Positions 11,284-56,286 of a stretch of 64,000 nucleotides of DNA are shown here, piece after piece (within the stretch, counting starts at the first letter, position 1; each line of letters begins with the position of its first letter). Under the pieces are notes generated by a model. That model made no database searches. It had not been told where the DNA came from and saw only the letters and a program-made list of their open reading frames with translations. The position numbers were made by a program, and so were the translations under genes. The stretch is taken from the NCBI GenBank assembly GCA_964016885.1, contig OZ024746.1:930001-994000 (forward strand), given 5' to 3'. The stretch is from Eledone cirrhosa. Its lineage: Eukaryota.

Positions 11284-11322
11284 TGAACAAGTACTTTCAT
11301 GCTTTCGCAATCTTCAGGTTCA
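11284..11322 (-). ncRNA. Minimal type I hammerhead ribozyme
   Basis: Minus: TGAAC-CTGAAGA-tTGC-GAAA-GCAt-GAAA-GTAC-TT-GTTCA; 5-bp stem I, GNRA-capped stem II, palindrome AAGTACTT. Confidence 0.88.
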
Positions 11323-11697: not shown

Positions 11698-13768
11698 TTA
11701 TTGTTCATTTAGCTTGGGTTTGAATTTATCAATAAAATTCTTTTCTTTGATTTTTCTCTTGATTTCATTTGGGCTGTGTAATTTGTAGAATGGGAATATT
11801 ATAAATATTCCCTGACCACATGTTGCCAGGTGGCCGCTTAGGGGTATCTGACGGACATTTGGGTCTCTGATTTGTTGACGGTGTACCCGTGCACGTTCCG
11901 ATAGTGCATTTCCAGTTTGACCGACATATAGTTCTTCACAATTCGGGCATTTAATGCAGTAAATTAGATTTCTGCTTTTGCAGTTCATATTTGCATTTGT
12001 GAATATTTTTCCAGTTTTTGTTTTCATATATTGACCGGCGTGTATGGATTGACATGTGCCGCATCGATTATCATTGCATTTAGATACAGTGAATGATTGG
12101 TCTTTGTTGTTAAGGTCAAACTTTGCTTTTGTTAGCAATTGCTTCAAATTTTTTGGCTGTCTTTTACTAAGAGTCAAAGATCGATCTGTGATTAAGCCTT
12201 TTAATTCATTACTTTGAGCAATGATCGGTAGGTTTGCTTTGGCAGTGTTGAAGATATTCTGGTGACATGGGTTGTGTGTCATTATAAATGGTATGACCAG
12301 TTCTTGGTTTCTTCTTCTTTGGGTTGTTCTAAGTTGTTGTATAGGTATTTTTATAGCCCGCTGTATGCCATTTTCTATAAGTAGAGATGGGTATTTTTGT
12401 TTGAGCAAAAATTCTCTTAGTTCTGTTAGGCGTTTGTACCTGGTATTCGTATCTTCTACAATGGTACAAATTCTTCTGGCTAGGCAGTATGGGATGTTGC
12501 GTTTTGTATGAGGTGGATGGCACGACTTAAAATTCAGATATTGATGGGTGTCTGTGTGTTTATAATATATATCCGTGGTAATGGTGGTGTCGTTTTTGAT
12601 TATCATTATATCTAGGAATGGTAATTTGGTCCTACTCATCTCTTTTGTGAATTGGAGAGATGGGTGTAGGTTATTCAGGAGGATATTGAACTCATCCAGA
12701 GTATCTAGAGATTCTGTCCAGATGATGAAACAGTCGTCAAGGTATCTCTTCCAAGATTTTTCAATGTACTTTCTAAAGTCAGTACTATATTTTTCCTCTA
12801 TTTCTTGGTAGAGTTGTTGTTCTAAGTATCCCATTACAGAGTTCGCGTAAACGGGAGCAAACTTCGTTCCCATCGCTGTGCCTCTAATTTGGATGTAATT
12901 CTTTCCATTGAAGAAGAAAGTGTTGTTTTCCAGAATAAGTTTAACTGCGTCTAATATAAATGTCGCTGTGAATCTAATGGGAATCACTTCTCTATGTTTT
13001 TCCACCCAGTATTTAACCGCCTTTATTCCTAAATCATGTGTAATGTTGGTGTAAAGGCTTACCACATCAAAACTGAGTAGAAGTGAATTCGTTTCCGTGG
13101 TTTTGGGAAGATGGGACAGGAAGTCGATATCATCCCGGATGAAACTGGGTATGTGAATACATAGTGGTTTCAAAATAATGTCAACAAAATTGCTTAGACG
13201 GTGAGTGGGGCATGTTGGACCAGCTATAATAGGTCTAAGTTTTAAGTCTTTTGGGTGTAATAATTTAATGTACTCACTGTTTTGTTCTCTTACTGCCAGT
13301 TGTATTTCTTTTGACTTGTGAACTTTCGGTAGGCCATACAGGTTGCTGGGTTTCGGCTCAAAATTGGTGATGTAGTCTCTTTCCTTATCAGTAAATGAGT
13401 TGTGGTATTTTGAAGCCAGGTTGTTGATCTTCTTCATGATGTTGTGGTCTATATTTGACGGTATTTCATGATAGAATGTTGTGTCTTTCAGTTGTTCCTC
13501 AACCAAATCCTTGTAGTATTCAGTATCCATTATAACAACTGCACCCCCTTTATCTGCTTGTTTAATTATTATTGTTTTATCATTTTGTATACGTTTAAGT
13601 GCAGACATTTCTGATTTGTTAATGTTTGGCCTAACATTAGTATTACGTCTAAGAGGAAATTTAGACAGGATGTCAATGTATTGGTCGAGATAGATATTTC
13701 TTCCTTTTGGCGGAGTGAAATTTGATTTATTCTTTACTAGTGATTCATCACTCTCATTATTTTTATCA
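11698..13768 (-). CDS. PLE reverse transcriptase + Cys-rich linker + GIY-YIG endonuclease (Neptune-like)
   Basis: [12 protein letters not shown]; YGLPKVHK; LRPII; [11 protein letters not shown]; [14 protein letters not shown]; WKRYLDD; LPFLDI; CNDNRCGTC; [23 protein letters not shown]; no stops over ~690 codons. Confidence 0.93.
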
Positions 13769-13792
13769 TACATATATATATATACATATATG

Positions 13793-17930: not shown

Positions 17931-18372
17931 TATATATATATGTATATATATATATGTATGTATATATATATATATATGTATGTATATATATATATATGTA
18001 TATATGTATGTATGTATATATGTATGTATGTATATATGTATGTATGTATATATGTATATATATATATATATATGTATGTATATATGTATGTATGTATATA
18101 TGTATGTATGTGTATATGTATATATATATATATATGTATATATATATCACCGTATGTATATATATATGTATATATATGTATATATATGTATATATATGTA
18201 TATATGTATATGTATATATATATATGTATATATATATATGTATATATATGTATATATATGTATATATATATATGTATATATATGTATATATATATATGTA
18301 TATATATGTATATATATATATGTATATATATGTATATATATATATGTATATATATATATGTATATATATATG

Positions 18373-18405
<33 letters not shown>

Positions 18406-18956
18406 GTATATATATATATATGTATGTATATATATATGTATGTATATATATATGTATGTATATATATATGTATGTATATATATATGTATGTATATATATA
18501 TGTATGTATATATATATATGTATGTATATATATATATGTATGTATATATATATATGTATATATATGTATATGTATATATATGTATATAGATAAATATGTA
18601 TATAGATAGATATATATGTATATAGATATATATGTATATAGATATATATGTATATAAATAGATATATATGTATATAGATAGATATATATGTATATAGATA
18701 GATATGTATATAGATATATATATATATGTATATACAATTAAGTTAAAAATGTACATCCACATATGTATACTGAAATACTAGTATGCATATGAATACACAC
18801 ACGTGTACATATGTAGATGTACCGAGTTTTTCACTGGTCACTTTACTGTGAGTGTCCAGCTATTCTGTATGTAAACACACAGAAAAACCGGTTTTTAGAG
18901 TCATACTGGTTTTTGAGGAAATACCTTTCCTCTATTCTCCAGAAAGCCAGACAAGG

Positions 18957-19001
18957 AATATTGGACTAGTTTCGATGTTGTTACATCTCATCAGCAATAT
19001 T
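18957..19001 (-). ncRNA. Minimal type I hammerhead ribozyme (family B)
   Basis: Minus: AATATTG-CTGATGA-GATGT-aaca-ACATC-GAAA-CTAG-TC-CAATATT; GUC site. Confidence 0.93.
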
Positions 19002-19422
19002 TACCTATCTTCCGGCCTTTCTAGAGAATCGTAAAAGCACATATCGTTATATGTTTTTTCTATGAAAATTAGTAGTGGGCAGACTAATTTGCATAGAGCG
19101 TGAGTACGTACCGGTTCAACGGAGACGATAAAAACAAATAACGAAACGAAATTAAATTTCGTTTCGTTTGTAACTCACTTTTGTATGACTGACGCTTAAA
19201 CAATTAAGTTAAAAATGTACATCCACATATGTATACTGAAATACTAGTATGCATATGAATACACACACGTATACATATGTAGATGTACCAAGTTTTTCAC
19301 TGGTCACTTTACTGTGAGTGTCCAGCTATTCTGTATGTAAACACACAGACAAACCGGTTTTTAGAGTCATACTGGTTTTTGAGGAAACACCTTTCCTCTA
19401 TTCTCCAGAAAGCCAGACAAGG

Positions 19423-19467
19423 AATATTGAACTAGTTTCGTTGTTGTTACAACTCATCAGCAATATT
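19423..19467 (-). ncRNA. Minimal type I hammerhead ribozyme (family B)
   Basis: Minus: AATATTG-CTGATGA-GTTGT-aaca-ACAAC-GAAA-CTAG-TT-CAATATT; compensatory stem II change relative to 18957. Confidence 0.92.
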
Positions 19468-19539
19468 TGCCTATCTTCCGGCCTTTCTGGAGAATCGTAA
19501 AAGCTTTTACGATTCTCCAGAAAGGCCGGAAGATAGGTA

Positions 19540-19584
19540 AATATTGCTGATGAGTTGTAACAACAACGAAACTAGTTCAATATT
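19540..19584 (+). ncRNA. Minimal type I hammerhead ribozyme (family B)
   Basis: AATATTG-CTGATGA-GTTGT-aaca-ACAAC-GAAA-CTAG-TT-CAATATT. Confidence 0.92.
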
Positions 19585-19875
19585 CCTTGTCTGGCTTTCT
19601 GGAGAATAGAGGAAAGGTGTTTCCTCAAAAACCAGTATGACTCTAAAAACCGGTTTGTCTGTGTGTTTACATACAGAATAGCTGGACACTCACAGTAAAG
19701 TGACCAGTGAAAAACTCGGTACATCTACATATGTACACGTGTGTGTATTCATATGCATACTAGTATTTCAGTATACATATGTGGATGTACATTTTTAACT
19801 TAATTGTTTAAGCGTCAGTCATACAAAAGTGAGTTACAAACGAAACGAAATTTAATTTCGTTTCGTTATTTGTTT

Positions 19876-19966
<91 letters not shown>

Positions 19967-20118
19967 GATATATATGTATATGTGTATATATAGATATATA
20001 TGTATATGTGTATGTATATGTGTATATATAGATATATATGTGTATATATATATATGTATATATATATATATGTGTATGTGTATATGTGTATAAGTATATA
20101 TATGTATATATATATATG

Positions 20119-20165
<47 letters not shown>

Positions 20166-20326
20166 GTATATGTATATATATGTATATGTATATATATATG
20201 TATATATATGTGTATATATGTATATGTATATATATATATGTATATATATATGTATGTATATGTGTATATGTATATATATATATGTGTATATATATATGTG
20301 TATATATATGTGCATATATATATGTA

Positions 20327-20357
<31 letters not shown>

Positions 20358-20392
20358 ATATATATGTATATATATATATGTATATATATATG

Positions 20393-20427
<35 letters not shown>

Positions 20428-20428
20428 G

Positions 20429-20460
<32 letters not shown>

Positions 20461-20604
20461 TATATATGTATATGTATATATGTATATATATGTATATATG
20501 TATGTATATATGTATATGTATATATGTATATATATGTATATATGTATATATATATATATATGTATATGTATATATATGTATATATATGTATATGTATATA
20601 TATG

Positions 20605-20703
<99 letters not shown>

Positions 20704-20713
20704 GTATATATAT

Positions 20714-21175
20714 ATACGTAGTTAAGAAAGCCACAACAATGTAGAGGGGAATCTCGAGGTAGGAAGTGAATGATAGATAGGAGAAACAGGTGAAAGTGAA
20801 AATTGAGAGAGAAAAAGATCAAAACAAAACAAAGGTAGAAGGGTTACTGTAGTGGAGATTTAATCCCAATATTTCGGGCTCACGCCCATCAACGGGGGAA
20901 AAGTTCCAAAAGGGGGGGAACAGGCCAAGCGGAGAAAGTTGTGATGTCGTTAAGACAGGAATGCCGTTATTAATATTGGGATTAAATCTCCACTACGGTA
21001 ACCCTTCTACCTTTGTTTTGTTTTGATCTTTTTCTCTCTCAATTTTCACTTTCACCTGTTTCTCCTATCTATCATTCACTTCCTACCTCGAGATTCCCCT
21101 CTACATTGTTGTGGCTTTCTTAACTACGTATTTTACACATTTCACAATGCTTCAAGCAAACTTTAACACCCTCTT
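20714..21175. mobile_element. Fold-back island: 160-bp inverted arms, 98-bp spacer, 3' tail
   Basis: 20714-20873 is the reverse complement of 20972-21131 (one mismatch seen); tail 21132-21175; (TA)n flanks. Confidence 0.88.
20864..20899 (-). ncRNA. Hammerhead-like motif with divergent core (CCGTTGA)
   Basis: Minus: TCCC-CCGTTGA-t-GGGC-gtga-GCCC-GAAA-TA-TT-GGGA; stems I and II intact, palindrome AATATT. Confidence 0.55.
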
Positions 21176-23741: not shown

Positions 23742-24065
23742 GATCATCATCATTTCATTTTACGTCCACTTTTTCCCTGCTTGCAAGGGTGGGACGGGAA
23801 CTGAATCTGGTTTGATTTCTACAGCTGGATGCACTTCCTAACACCAACCTCATTTTACAGTGAGTGCTGGGTGCTTTTTTTTGCCGTGGCACCTCCACGA
23901 CCACTTTGCAGTGGAATGATAGGGACCTCAGTCCCTATCATCTCATTTCTACAGCTGAGTAAACTGGAGCAATGTGAAATAAAGTGTCTTGCTCAAGGAA
24001 ACAAGAATTGAACTCACAATCTTTTGATTGCAAGGCCAATGCTCTAACCACTAAGCCATGTGCCT

Positions 24066-48375: not shown

Positions 48376-48784
48376 TAGTGGTTCTGTAGTGGAATCAATT
48401 GATTCCAGTTTCTCAAAACCAAGTTAATTCCTGCGCCTTAAACCATTCTGTTAGTCTTCACAAACTAATTTATTGTAAATTTCTGATAGTTATCATAAAT
48501 TCCTGTCATTTGGTTAAAAATAATTAATTCTTTCTACAACTGGAACTATTATTTAATTATATCTGCTTACTACTTCAAATTCTTGTCATTTTCGCTAAAA
48601 TTACTGATAATTCTTGCTACAATTATAAGTAATTGATAATTATAGATATATCCCTAACATTGAAACCATCATCATCATCATCAATATCACCATCATCCTT
48701 ATCATCATCATCACCATCATCATCATCACTATCATCATCATTGTCATCATTTTACATCAATTCATTCATACATACACACACACA

Positions 48785-51700
48785 ACAACTGAACTATTTA
48801 CACACAACAACTGAACTATATACACACAACAACTGATCTATATACACATACAACAGCTGAACTATATCCACACACAACAACAGAACTATATACACACAAC
48901 AACAGAACTATATACACACAACAACAGAACTATATACACACACAACAACAGAACTATATACACACAACAACAGAACTATATACACACACAACAACAGAAC
49001 TATATACACACAACAACTGAAGTATATACACACAACAACTGAACTATATACACACAACAACTGAACTATATACACACAACAACTGAACTATATACACACA
49101 CAACAACTGAACTATATACACACAACAACAGAAATATATACACACACAACAACTGAACTATATACACAACAACTGAACTATATACACACAACAACTGAAG
49201 TATATACAAACAACAACTGAACTATATACACACAAAACAACTGAACTATATACACACAACAACTGAACTATATACGCACACAACAACTGAACTATACACA
49301 CATCAACTGAAATATATACACACACAACAACTGAACTATATACACACAACAACAGAACTATATACACACACAACAACAGAACTATATACACACACAACAA
49401 CTGAACTATACACACAACAACAGAACTATATACACACACAACAACTGAACTATATACACACAACAACAGAACTATATACACACACAACAACTGAAGTATA
49501 TACACACAACAACTGAACTATATACACACACAACAACTGAACTATACACACAACAACTGAACTATATACACACACATCAACTGAACTATATACACACACA
49601 ACAACTGAACTATATACACACAACGACTGAACTATACGCACAACAACTGAACTATATACACACAACAACTGAACTATATACACACACAACAACTGAACTA
49701 TATACACACACAACAACTGAACTATATACACACATCAACTGAACTATATACACACACAACAACTGAAGTATATACACACACAACAACTGAACTATATACA
49801 CACACAACAACTGAAGTATATACACATCAACTGAACTATATACACACACAACAACTGAAGTATATATACACACAACAACTGAACTATATACACACATCAA
49901 CTGAACTATATACACACACAACAACTGAACTATATACACATATCAACTGAACTATATACACACACAACAACTGAACTATATATACACACAACAACTGAAG
50001 TATATATACACACAACAACTGAACTATATACACACATCAACTGAACTATATACACACATCAACTGAACTATATACACACACAACAACTGAACTATATATA
50101 CACACATCAACTGAACTATATACACACAACAACTGAACTATATACACACATCAACTGAACTATATACACACATCAACTGAACTATATACAGACACAACAA
50201 CTGAGCTATATACACACACAACAACTGAACTATATACACACATCAACTGAACTATATACACACACAACAACTGAACTATATACACACATCAACTGAACTA
50301 TATACACACACAACAACTGAACAAATATATACACATAACAACTGAACTATATACACACATCAACTGAACTATATACACACAAAACAACTGAACTATATAC
50401 ACACACAACAACTGAAGTATATACACACACAACAACTGAACTATATACACACATCAACTGAACTATATACACACACAACAACTGAAGTATATACACACAC
50501 AACTGAACTATATATACACACATCAACTGAACTATATACACACACAACAACTAAACTATATACACACACAACAACTGAACTATTTACACACATCAACTGA
50601 ACTATATACACACACAACAACTGAACTATATACACACATCAACTGAACTATATTCACACACATCAACTGAACTATATACACACACAACAACTGAACTATA
50701 TACACACATCAACTGAACTATATACACACATCGACTGAACTATATACAAACAACAACTGAACTATATACACACATCAACTGAACTATATACACACATCAA
50801 CTGAACTATATACAGACACAACAACTGAACTATATACACACACAACAACTGAAGTATATACACACATCAACTGAACTATATACACACACAACAACTGAAC
50901 TATATATACACACAACAACTGAAGTATATATACACACAACAACTGAACTATATACACACATCAACTGAACTATATACACACATCAACTGAACTATATACA
51001 CACATCAACTGAACTATATACTGACACAACAACTGAACTATATACACACACAACAACTGAACTATATACACACATCAACTGAACTATATTCACACACAAC
51101 AACTGAAGTATATACACACATCAACTGAACTATATACACATACAACAACTGAACTATATACGCACACAATAACTGAACTATATACACACATCAACTGAAC
51201 TATATACACACATCAACTGAACTATATACACACACAACAACTGAAGTATATACACATACAACAACTGAACTATATACACACACAACAACTGAACTATATA
51301 CACACATCAACTGAACTATATACACACACAACAACTGAAGTATATACACACACAACAACTAAACTATATACACACACAACAACTGAACTATATACACACA
51401 CAACAACTGAACTATATACACACAACAACTGAACTATATACACACATCAACTGAACTATATACACACACAACAACTGAAGTATATACACACATCAACTGA
51501 ACTATATACACATACAACAACTGAACTATATACGCACACAACAACTGAACTATATACACACATCAACTGAACTATATACACACATCAACTGAACTATATA
51601 CACACACAACAACTGAAGTATATACACACACAACAACTGAACTATATACACACATCAACTGAACTATATACACACACAACAACTGAAGTATATACACACA

Positions 51701-54700
51701 CAACAACTGAACTATATACACACACAACAACTGAACTATATACACACACAACAACTGAAGTATATACGCACATCAACTGAACTATATACACACATCAACT
51801 GAACTATATACACACACAACAACTGAACTATATATACACACAACAACTGAAGTATATATACACACAACAACTGAACTATATACACACATCAACTGAACTA
51901 TATACACACACAACAACTGAACTATATACACACATCAACTGAACTATATACACACACAACAACTGAACTATATATACACACATCAACTGAACTATATACA
52001 CACAGCAACTGAACTATATACACACATCAACTGAACTATATACACACATCAACTGAACTATATACTGACACAACAACTGAACTATATACACACACAACAA
52101 CTGAACTATATACACACATCAACTGAACTATATACACACACAACAACTGAACTATATACACACATCAACTGAACTATATACACACACAACAACTGAACTA
52201 TATATACACACATCAACTGAACTATATACACACAACAACTGAACTATATACACACATCAACTGAACTATATACACACATCAACTGAACTATATACTGACA
52301 CAACAACTGAACTATATACACACACAACAACTGAACTATATACACACATCAACTGAACTATATACACACACAACAACTGAACTATATACACACATCAACT
52401 GAACTATATTCACACACAACAACTGAACTATATACACACACAACAACTGAAGTATATACACACACAACAACTGAACTATATACACACATCAACTGAACTA
52501 TATACACACAACAACTGAAGTATATACACACACAACAACTGAACTATATACACACACAACAACTGAAGTATATACGCACATCAACTGAACTATATACACA
52601 CATCAACTGAACTATATACACACACAACAACTGAAGTATATACACACACAACAACTGAACTATATACACACACAACAACTGAACTATTTACACACATCAA
52701 CTGAACTATATACACACACAACAACTGAAGTATATACACACACAACAACTGAACTATATACACACACAACAACTGAACTATATACACACACAACAACTGA
52801 AGTATATACGCACATCAACTGAACTATATACACACATCAACTGAACTATATACACACACAACAACTGAACTATATATACACACAACAACTGAAGTATATA
52901 TACACACAACAACTGAACTATATACACACATCAACTGAACTATATACACACATCAACTGAACTATATACACACACAACAACTGAACTATATACACACATC
53001 AACTGAACTATATACACACACAACAACTGAACTATATATACACACATCAACTGAACTATATACACACAACAACTGAACTATATACACACATCAACTGAAC
53101 TATATACACACATCAACTGAACTATATACACACAACAACTGAACTATATACACACATCAACTGAACTATATACACACACAACAACTGAACTATATACACA
53201 CATCAACTGAACTATATACACACACAACAACTGAACTATATACACACATCAACTGAACTATATACACACACAACAACTGAACAATATATACACACAACAA
53301 CTGAACTATATACACACATCAACTGAACTATATACACACATAACAACTGAACTATATACACACATCAACTGAACTATATACACACACAACAACTGAACTA
53401 TATACACACATCAACTGAACTATATACACACACAACAACTGAACTATATATACACACAACAACTGAAGTATATATGCACATCAACTGAACTATATACACA
53501 CATCAACTGAACTATATACACACACAACAACTAAACTATATACACACACAACAACTGAACTATTTACACAAATCAACTGAACTATATACACACACAACAA
53601 CTGAACTATATACACACATCAACTGAACTATATTCACACACAACAACTGAACTATATACACACACAACAACTGAACTATATATACACACATCAACTGAAC
53701 TATATACACACAACAACTTAACTATATACACACACAACAACTGAAGTATATACACACATCAACTGAACTATATACACACATCAATTGAACTATATACACA
53801 CACAACAACTGAAGTATATACACACATCAACTGAACTATATACACATACAACAACTGAACTATATACGCACACAATAACTGAACTATATACACACATCAT
53901 CTGAACTATATACACACATCAACTGAACTATATACACACACAACAACTGAAGTATATACACACACAACAACTGAACTATATACACACATCAACTGAACTA
54001 TATACACACACAACAACTGAAGTATATACACACACAACAACTGAACTATATACACACACAACAACTGAAGTATATACGCACATCAACTGAACTATATACA
54101 CACATCAGCTGAACTATATACACACACAACAACTGAAGTATATACACACACAACAACTGAACTATATACACACACAACAACTGAACTATTTACACACATC
54201 AACTGAACTATATACACACACAACAACTGAACTATATACACACATCAACTGAACTATATTCACACACAACAACTGAACTATATACACACATCAACTGAAC
54301 TATATACACACATCAACTGAACTATATACACACATCAACTGAACTATACACACACAACAACTGAACTATACACACACAACAACTGAACTATATACACACA
54401 CAACAACTGAACTATATACACACATCAACTGAACTATATACACACAACAACTGAACTATACACACACAACAACTGAACTATATACACACACAACAACTGA
54501 ACTATATACACACACAACAACTGAACTATATACACACATTAACTGAACTATATACACACACAACAACTGAAGTATATACGCACAACAACTGAACTATATA
54601 CACACATGAACTGAACTATATACACACACAACAACTGAAGTATATACACACATCAACTGAACTATATATACACACAACAACTGAAGTATATACACACATC

Positions 54701-56286
54701 AACTGAACTATATACACACACAACAACTGAAGTATATACACACACAACAACTGAACTATATACACACATCAACTGAACTCTATACACACACAACAACTGA
54801 AGTATATACACACACAACAACTAAACTATATACACACACAACAACTGAACTATATACACACACAACAACTGAACTATATACACACATCAACTGAACTATA
54901 TACACACACAACAACTGAAGTATATACACACATCAACTGAACTATATACACATACAACAACTGAACTATATACGCACACAACAACTGAACTATATACACA
55001 CATCAACTGAACTATATACACACATCAACTGAACTATATACACACACAACAACTGAAGTATATACACACACAACAACTGAACTATATACACACACAACAA
55101 CTGAAGTATATACGCACATCAACTGAACTATATACACACATCAACTGAACTATATACACACACAACAACTGAAGTATATACACACACAACAACTGAACTA
55201 TATACACACACAACAACTGAAGTATATACACACATCAACTGAACTATATACACACACAACAACTGAACTATATACACACACTTCAACTGAACTATATACA
55301 CACATCAACTGAACTATATACACACATCAACTGAACTATATACACACACATCAACTGAAGTATATACACACAACAACTGAACTATATACACACATCAACT
55401 GAACTATATACACACATCAACTGAACTATATACACACATCAACTGAACTATATACACACACACCAACTGAACTATATACACACACAACAACTGAAGTATA
55501 TACACACACAACAACTGAACTATATACACACACAACAACTGAAGTATATACGCACATCAACTGAACTATATACACACATCAACTGAACTATATACACACA
55601 CAACAACTGAAGTATATACACACACAACAACTGAACTATATACACACACAACAACTGAACCATATACACACATCAACTGAACTATATACACACACAACAA
55701 CTGAACTATATACACACATCAACTGAACTATATACACACATCAACTGAACTATATACACACATCAACTGAACTATATACACACACATCAACTGAAGTATA
55801 TACACACAACAACTGAACTATATACACACACAACAACTGAACTATATACGCACACAACAACTGAAGTATATACACACATCAACTGAACTATATACACACA
55901 ACAACTGAACTATATACACACAACAACTGAACTATATACACACATCAACTGAACTATATACACACATCAACTGAACTATATACACACACATCAACTGAAG
56001 TATATACACACAACAACTGAACTATATACACACACAACAACTGAACTATATACGCACACAACAACTGAACTATATACACACATCAACTGAACTATATACA
56101 CACAACAACTGAACTATATACACACATCAACTGAACTATATACACACATCAACTGAACTATATACACACACATCAACTGAAGTATATACACACAACAACT
56201 GAACTATATACACACACAACAACTGAACTATATACGCACACAACAACTGAAGTATATACACACATCAACTGAACTATATACACACG
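48785..56286. repeat. 7.5-kb satellite, 21-25-bp unit AACTGAACTATATACACACA(CA)(AC/TC)
   Basis: Roughly 320-330 units estimated from length; recurring variants (GAAGTA, TACGCA, CTAAAC, TATTTA, TACTGA). Confidence 0.98.

Follow-up and report, generated by a model that had tools for sequence, protein, structure and literature searches.

Paired fixed ends in the inverted insertions of a 466-nt hammerhead retrozyme family suggest mobilisation by Penelope-like elements in Eledone cirrhosa

In the genome of Eledone cirrhosa, a non-coding 466-nt repeat that by its sequence is a real, young, high-copy non-LTR retrozyme family, and as such a previously known kind of element, is inserted into (TA)n microsatellites, in most of the sampled loci, as two head-to-head arms that terminate at two different fixed points (referred to as end A and end B respectively). 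The near-strict pairing of one A with one B is new evidence on retrozyme mobilisation. We consider it likely that the reverse transcriptase (RT) and GIY-YIG nuclease of a Penelope-like element (PLE) copy the retrozyme into (TA)n in trans, through coupled priming at two sites. Animal retrozymes were defined by Cervera and de la Pena (2020, PMC7229834), who showed circles in three species and named PLEs as candidate mobilisers, and retrozymes were later linked to PLE terminal repeats by distribution and homology, with the mechanism left open (Li, Clavereau and Pollet, 2026, 10.64898/2026.07.22.740005); these and the other papers identified here by accession are cited for those portions of their text that were available. 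Our literature search, mostly of main texts in open-access journals, returned no report of a signature of tail plus inversion in a retrozyme.

One member of the family lies in the window (i.e., the whole 64,000-nt stretch of DNA that was analysed), and its features are listed in Table 1, where the unit coordinate u is the window position minus 19037. It contains a direct repeat with an offset of 466 (18735-19038 versus 19201-19504; 9 mismatches in 304 positions) and a palindrome of two 376-bp arms with zero spacer and 3 mismatches (19128-19503 and 19504-19879), in agreement with the 466-nt period, the spacerless 752-bp palindrome, and the hairpin at about 19140-19168 given in a preliminary description of this DNA. 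The 73-nt tail is present at the end of arm A (19807-19879) and missing at that of arm B, where a few bases at 18735 are common to the TA flank and the unit. With (TA)n on both flanks, a target-site duplication (>4 bp when present in retrozymes) cannot be delimited. The longest stop-free frame in the unit is 60 codons, and its GC content is 0.36.

Table 1. Features of the study locus (window coordinates).
Feature	Position	Strand	Remark
Entire insertion	18735..19879	.	Two head-to-head arms of the 466-nt hammerhead repeat within a (TA)n-type microsatellite; related loci have the same anatomy
Arm B	18735..19503	-	1.65 units, RNA sense minus; terminates at family end B (u ~164, window 18735)
Arm A	19504..19879	+	Inverted, RNA sense plus, 376 nt; terminates at family end A (u91)
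Predicted cut-to-cut monomer	18964..19429	-	466 nt; prediction from sequence
Tail	19128..19200	-	73 nt between ends A and B
Hairpin	19140..19168	.	29 nt, within the tail; inversion junctions enriched around it
Type I hammerhead motif 1	18941..19012	-	Stem II GAUGU/ACAUC, GUC triplet; predicted cut 18964/18963
Type I hammerhead motif 2	19407..19478	-	Stem II GUUGU/ACAAC, GUU triplet; predicted cut 19430/19429; within the palindrome
Type I hammerhead motif 3	19529..19600	+	Mirror of motif 2
ATGCAAAT box	19087..19094	-	Intact in 89/96 loci and 25/27 paralog matches
Left target microsatellite	17931..18734	.	(TA)n-type
Right target microsatellite	19880..20713	.	(TA)n-type

Two hammerheads on one strand and a third on the other had been described at this locus, and all three motifs are present with intact CUGAUGA and GAAA. 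The tandem pair is on the minus strand, with core starts at 18994 and 19460, and the third motif is on the plus strand, with its core start at 19547. Each unit has a 7-bp stem I, a 5-bp stem II, and a short helix III; a dimeric hammerhead model is given in PMC4209133. Scores against the Rfam entry Hammerhead_HH9 (RF02275) are 38.9, 34.9, and 37.7 bits for the three motifs respectively (E 1e-7 to 2e-6), below its gathering threshold of 52 bits, and a scan of the window at the Rfam gathering level returned zero ribozymes; the motifs would act as hammerheads and stand outside the HH9 entry. Rfam microRNA matches, with scores far under their thresholds, were discarded as hairpin or microsatellite noise. 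The predicted fold of the monomer has a z of -11.6 against 100 shuffles. Elsewhere in the window are a weak tRNA match between microsatellites (24000-24059, minus strand, 32.4 bits), perhaps a tRNA-derived repeat, and a 7.5-kb minisatellite with a 24-nt unit (48770-56285).

The preliminary description had asked for other genomic copies, and there are many: the 3.0-Gb genome contains 7,819 exact ribozyme cores (0 in the reversed control). Identity to the unit is ~98-100% over full units in the best 40 loci and goes down to about 87% in other loci, and arrays of the 466-nt period reach ~30 units. At the level of the family, the earlier designation as a retrozyme therefore holds, as the repeat is built, from dimers to multimers, of tandem units a few hundred bases long that each contain a type I hammerhead motif, lacks an ORF, has a GC content of 36% (i.e., <50%), and is present in thousands of copies. 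The analysis covered 102 distinct loci, of which 38 were selected for similarity, 25 for their position along contig C1, and 39 for an end A within (TA)n; left out were L128 (the same as L127), L115 (array of L116), L117 (without a unit), and overlapping loci of single arrays in L001-L030. An older homologous family (L082:1220-1760 and L161-L190; 3,966 candidates, 30 loci fetched) has a period of ~423 nt, a conserved ribozyme core with a different but paired stem II, and the octamer box. A remnant at L080:1340-1480 (minus strand), with a ATGCAAAT box upstream of a hammerhead-like core, is possibly a third family.

The ATGCAAAT box, which we take to be an octamer motif, may by its sequence be a promoter element, and would presumably fit a snRNA-type promoter like that of newt satellite 2. 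The latter, a tandem repeat that also bears a hammerhead and is set beside this family by description, has a snRNA-type internal promoter, as cited in PMC2220036. In the array L107 (G000:C1:30831000-30840990), the octamer box is broken by three changes in every unit.

Words of the unit also occur in 20 listed sequencing runs (16 studies), and this occurrence across organisms was discounted as probable carry-over of a very abundant repeat. No RNA run is among those listed. Runs X4 and X7 each contain one contig wrapping round the unit (depth 4.5 and 9.7 respectively), and horizontal transfer or circles, considered on the basis of these contigs, were set aside with the same reading of probable carry-over. 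Raw reads of another listed organism (X23) contain 0 unit reads in 1.9 Gb.

The change of stem II from GATGT/ACATC to GTTGT/ACAAC, and of the cut triplet from GUC to GUU, is present as described earlier, but the proposal that a compensatory change arose between these two copies does not hold, both forms being family-wide subfamilies. Among 365 units, 265 have one form, 99 the other, and 1 is mismatched (i.e., 364/365 pair), and the study locus happens to join a GAUGU/GUC copy (copy 1) with a GUUGU/GUU copy (copy 2). The covariation therefore counts as one or few inherited events, corresponding to two subfamilies. GUU is the commoner cut triplet (303 units, versus 60 with GUC and 2 with GUG). 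Selection on the ribozyme is weakly indicated by the absence of shared variants from the 13 catalytic core columns (95 of 452 columns have them overall), the whole-motif test being non-significant (p = 0.085).

Excision of a 466-nt monomer from the study locus, as previously suggested, is doubtful, as the palindrome is predicted to mask stem II of the upstream (second) ribozyme. For transcripts beginning at 19503 or 19540 this stem has a predicted probability of 0.98, which falls to <=0.001 for starts at 19600 or beyond; the ribozyme would then be buried in duplex once transcription starts at least 100 nt into arm A. With the upstream ribozyme masked in this manner, the locus would be a poor source of monomers, and multi-unit arrays elsewhere would be better candidate sources.

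The palindrome is no peculiarity of the locus: head-to-head inversion is the usual form of the family, with 72 junctions detected automatically in the 102 loci, on top of which come short inverted stubs under the alignment limit. The outer ends are located at u91 (end A) or u160-166 (end B), 73 nt apart. Genome-wide there are 2,088 exact junctions of end A with (TA)n, compared to 6,111 internal copies of the same point, and 737 end-B junctions, counted on the reverse strand only since the forward count (1,935) is inflated by a variable gap. The 72 inversions comprise 61 A+B, 2 A+A, and 0 B+B pairs, with 9 unassigned. Of the two A+A cases, L116 belongs to an array that in fact terminates on its left in B (in L115), and L027 is a 33-nt piece within the hairpin, adjoining another repeat. 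Inspection by eye of the 39 loci chosen by end A gave the same picture: all 29 visible inverted far ends are B (25 aligned inverted arms and 4 short stubs), 3 far ends are out of sight, 7 loci have no inverted arm, and a second A end was found in none. The older ~423-nt family has two matching ends 51 nt apart; among its 30 fetched loci at least nine have one of each, and none was seen with two alike.

An assembly or fold-back read artefact is an extremely improbable source of the palindrome at the study locus. No read or contig across 19503/19504 and no strand-change joint was seen, in a comparison of run contigs with the monomer alone, as an artefact would have it; against this, the arms differ at 3 sites, two of which are known family variants, arm A terminates exactly at family end A, and run X1, which may come from the sample of the assembly itself, has contigs with loose (TA)n ends at 19128, 19197, and 19202.

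A second proposal, made for Penelope in PMC3846280, is that the inverted arm arises by self-priming fold-back of a single cDNA rather than by two target-primed syntheses. Palindromes are reported at PLE inversion junctions in the same paper, and the centre of the study locus is perfectly symmetric, with an arm A that is copy-2-like near the centre (u393-452) and copy-1-like further out (u234 and u253). One outward event from the centre, whether fold-back or conversion, would account for the mosaic arm as well as the perfect centre, which is probably due to a later fold-back or conversion from copy 2. For the family, however, simple fold-back fails as an explanation: symmetry within 5 nt is uncommon, being seen at only 6 of the 72 junctions, of which 4 lie in the self-complementary hairpin; the lengths of the two arms show no correlation (rho 0.07, n=61; medians 591 and 585 nt); and the stop of the far end at the other fixed point is left without a reason. 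As the general origin of the inverted arms we therefore regard it as unlikely.

Twin priming is known for L1, where it gives one fixed 3' end and non-overlapping arms. That a LINE-type element mobilises the repeat, with the inversion produced in this way, is very improbable: other RT-like ORFs do occur near some copies, but both outer ends are fixed and of the 3' type, the arms duplicate the same sequence, poly(A) is absent, and the pairing of A with B also argues against it.

The insertions instead have the traits of PLE insertion, namely an inverted, 5'-truncated copy placed head to head, a one-sided tail (here of 73 nt), and a (TA)n target. Inverted copies, one-sided tails, and a bias towards (TA)n or microsatellites have been described for PLEs (PMC8557442, PMC3846280), and since the inverted copy and tail of the retrozyme match them, a Penelope-type enzyme is likely to move it. 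In work on Poseidon of Anolis, the purified PLE protein cut both strands, extended them, and began synthesis at two internal sites on either side of the tail; a PLE dimer is predicted, and ribozyme cleavage is not needed (PMC11167929). In the model proposed here for the retrozyme, both target strands would be nicked within (TA)n, and the resulting 3' ends would each prime synthesis at an internal point of one and the same RNA, or of RNAs with a common source, A serving one strand and B the other. Both cDNAs would stop at scattered points and then be joined, mostly with short overlaps; 44 of the 72 inversion junctions overlap. Against the Penelope model, the 73-nt tail exceeds the 30-40 bp of the papers cited here, and the in vitro start sites of PLE are alike on both strands (PMC11167929), which does not predict a strict A+B rule.

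Candidates for the machinery are abundant in the same genome, where 10,596 GIY-YIG domain candidates were found, 150 of them listed and scored. Near-intact ORFs of 938 and 1,096 codons both contain an RT, with a Pfam GIY-YIG domain in the first only, and their Cys-rich linker, as defined in PMC8557442, suggests the Neptune clade. Near-intact PLEs likewise end in (TA)n, and L082 contains an inverted insertion with two ends ~65 nt apart. An RT plus GIY-YIG ORF, as expected of an autonomous PLE, was not found within the 466-nt element. It also counts against the model that blastn and a two-family profile (4 of its 13 rows poorly registered), run over 40 of the 150 listed GIY-YIG loci (of 10,596 candidates), revealed no autonomous element whose terminal repeat is homologous to the unit; everything matched in these 40 was a copy of the retrozyme or of its paralog, apart from one further remnant bearing a hammerhead.

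Several PLE remnants were observed along the way. A near-intact Neptune-like element has a hammerhead-like motif with a U3-A8 core variant in both terminal repeats (L071:6431 and 1452, minus strand). The window itself contains a 5'-truncated Neptune-like PLE ORF (11704-13773 and 11289-11317, both on the minus strand), 48-52% identical to L071 and L073, and in the 3' region of this PLE lies a hammerhead-like motif whose short helix III follows the plan seen in the 466-nt retrozyme. At L093:2748-2936, a retrozyme arm lies head to head with the last 63 codons of a Neptune-like ORF, separated by a short TA run; a chimeric retrozyme-Neptune insertion was considered there and dropped, as the TA run at the junction fits a later landing beside an old fragment equally well.

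Within the same microsatellite as the study locus, a second palindrome (20714-21130; 159-bp arms, 99.4% alike, ~98 bp between them) is the terminal-repeat stump of another PLE with 1,601 candidates, and 5 of 15 fetched loci have an adjoining ORF 53-56% identical to the L081 protein. The 466-nt unit could similarly be the terminal repeat of an unfound autonomous PLE, its loci being truncated stumps expanded by unequal crossing over. This neighbouring stump and the local amplification visible in arrays are in its favour, but the arms wrap from unit to unit, none in the 102 loci was seen continuing in sense into PLE coding sequence, and both arms are often multimeric, which makes this reading decidedly unlikely.

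The arms also carry information on the template. Arm ends fall within 5 nt of the ribozyme cut in 2 of 137 cases (2.9 expected), and in view of this lack of a pile-up a cut linear monomer was ruled out as template. Most arms run past the first cut (49 of the 61 A arms and 51 of the 61 B arms), and 22 A and 26 B arms run past two. Arm ends are in excess around the hairpin at u103-145 (32 versus 12.7 expected), partly since the hairpin aligns both ways, and mildly so at u373-392 (10 versus 5.9 expected, p 0.07). The two arms of a locus share subfamily and rare variants. Their terminal segments differ at 0.005 shared-variant sites per base (n=56), whereas segments compared across loci differ at 0.038 (n=3,719 pairs). 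In 11 of 66 loci, private variants are found on both arms, and 19 of 27 rare variants common to the two arms recur in all of the segments that cover them. Arms differ at two or more sites in 13 of 56 loci, and the study locus, whose arms differ at 4 shared-variant sites, breaks the same-template rule. Arms of the same subfamily could partly be explained by one subfamily being active at a time.

The template is then either an uncut multimer or a circular monomer, two options that we rate as about evenly balanced. In the former case, the template of the same PLE machinery would be a linear multimer, produced by read-through of a uniform source array, with circles absent or irrelevant and the ribozyme without a role in mobility; this complete reading is a serious contender, if a little short of even. 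It accords with the lack of effect of hammerhead mutants on PLE insertion in vitro, where uncut RNA is the main substrate (PMC11167929), with the failure of 8 of 9 frog dimer elements to cleave (10.64898/2026.07.22.740005), with the presence of different subfamilies in copies 1 and 2 of the study locus, which is impossible from one monomer circle, and with the 8 of 27 rare both-arm variants that are in only some segments. Against it stand the ~20 units of L107, identical across both arms of an inversion down to their rare variants, the maintenance of the ribozyme core and a paired stem II in the diverged paralog family, and the circles shown for coral, mussel, and axolotl retrozymes (PMC7229834).

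In the latter case, a pair of Penelope RTs would act on one circular 466-nt ribozyme RNA, one starting at A and the other at B with opposite strands of a nicked (TA)n target as primers, and both would roll round until they stop and their products are joined, a reading that we hold only tentatively, at somewhat less than an even chance. Circle and uncut multimer are indistinguishable here because arrays have also grown in place: periodic variants in L119 and L120 indicate local amplification after insertion, so that long arrays are unreadable as rolling-circle products.

The family resembles metazoan non-LTR retrozymes in its tandem non-coding units, its low GC content, its type I hammerheads, one per unit, whose helix III is short and palindromic, its dispersed monomers to multimers, and the presence of PLEs in the same genome. 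Its unit is just above the 150-450 bp of PMC7229834 and within the 51-972 bp of 10.64898/2026.07.22.740005, and inverted arms, a tail, fixed ends, and microsatellite targets are not reported for retrozymes in the available text of these two papers. Expression and circles have been shown for retrozymes of other species. With the insertions of endonuclease-bearing PLEs (PMC3846280, PMC8557442, PMC11167929) it shares the head-to-head inverted truncated copy, the tail at one end, the AT-rich or (TA)n targets, and a hammerhead upstream of the two ends. Unlike them, it has no ORF, its tail measures 73 rather than 30-40 nt, both of its arms can be multimers, and the search of 40 among the 150 listed GIY-YIG loci gave no homologous terminal repeat of a resident autonomous element. 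MRC1 and other non-autonomous elements of Chlamys (PMC8557442) are likewise non-coding PLE derivatives with multicopy head-to-tail insertions, but their 3' end resembles that of their autonomous partners, and their group is reported as lacking canonical hammerheads.

The ribozyme repeat and the single locus are ordinary for their kind, and the value of the family lies in the A+B pairing and the same-variant arms. Both the mobilising enzyme of animal retrozymes and the origin of the inverted copy and tail of Penelope have been called open in the papers cited; with their near-strict rule of one A and one B, the thousands of young, non-coding insertions link these questions and speak against simple fold-back. 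The family also offers a small test system, in which the 466-nt RNA and its two predicted start sites can be combined with a (TA)n target and with near-intact Penelope-type proteins of the same genome. If the circular-template reading is true, the family would preserve in the genome a record of rolling-circle retrotransposition with dual priming for an animal retrozyme, and the Penelope tail and inverted copy would be explained by a single model.
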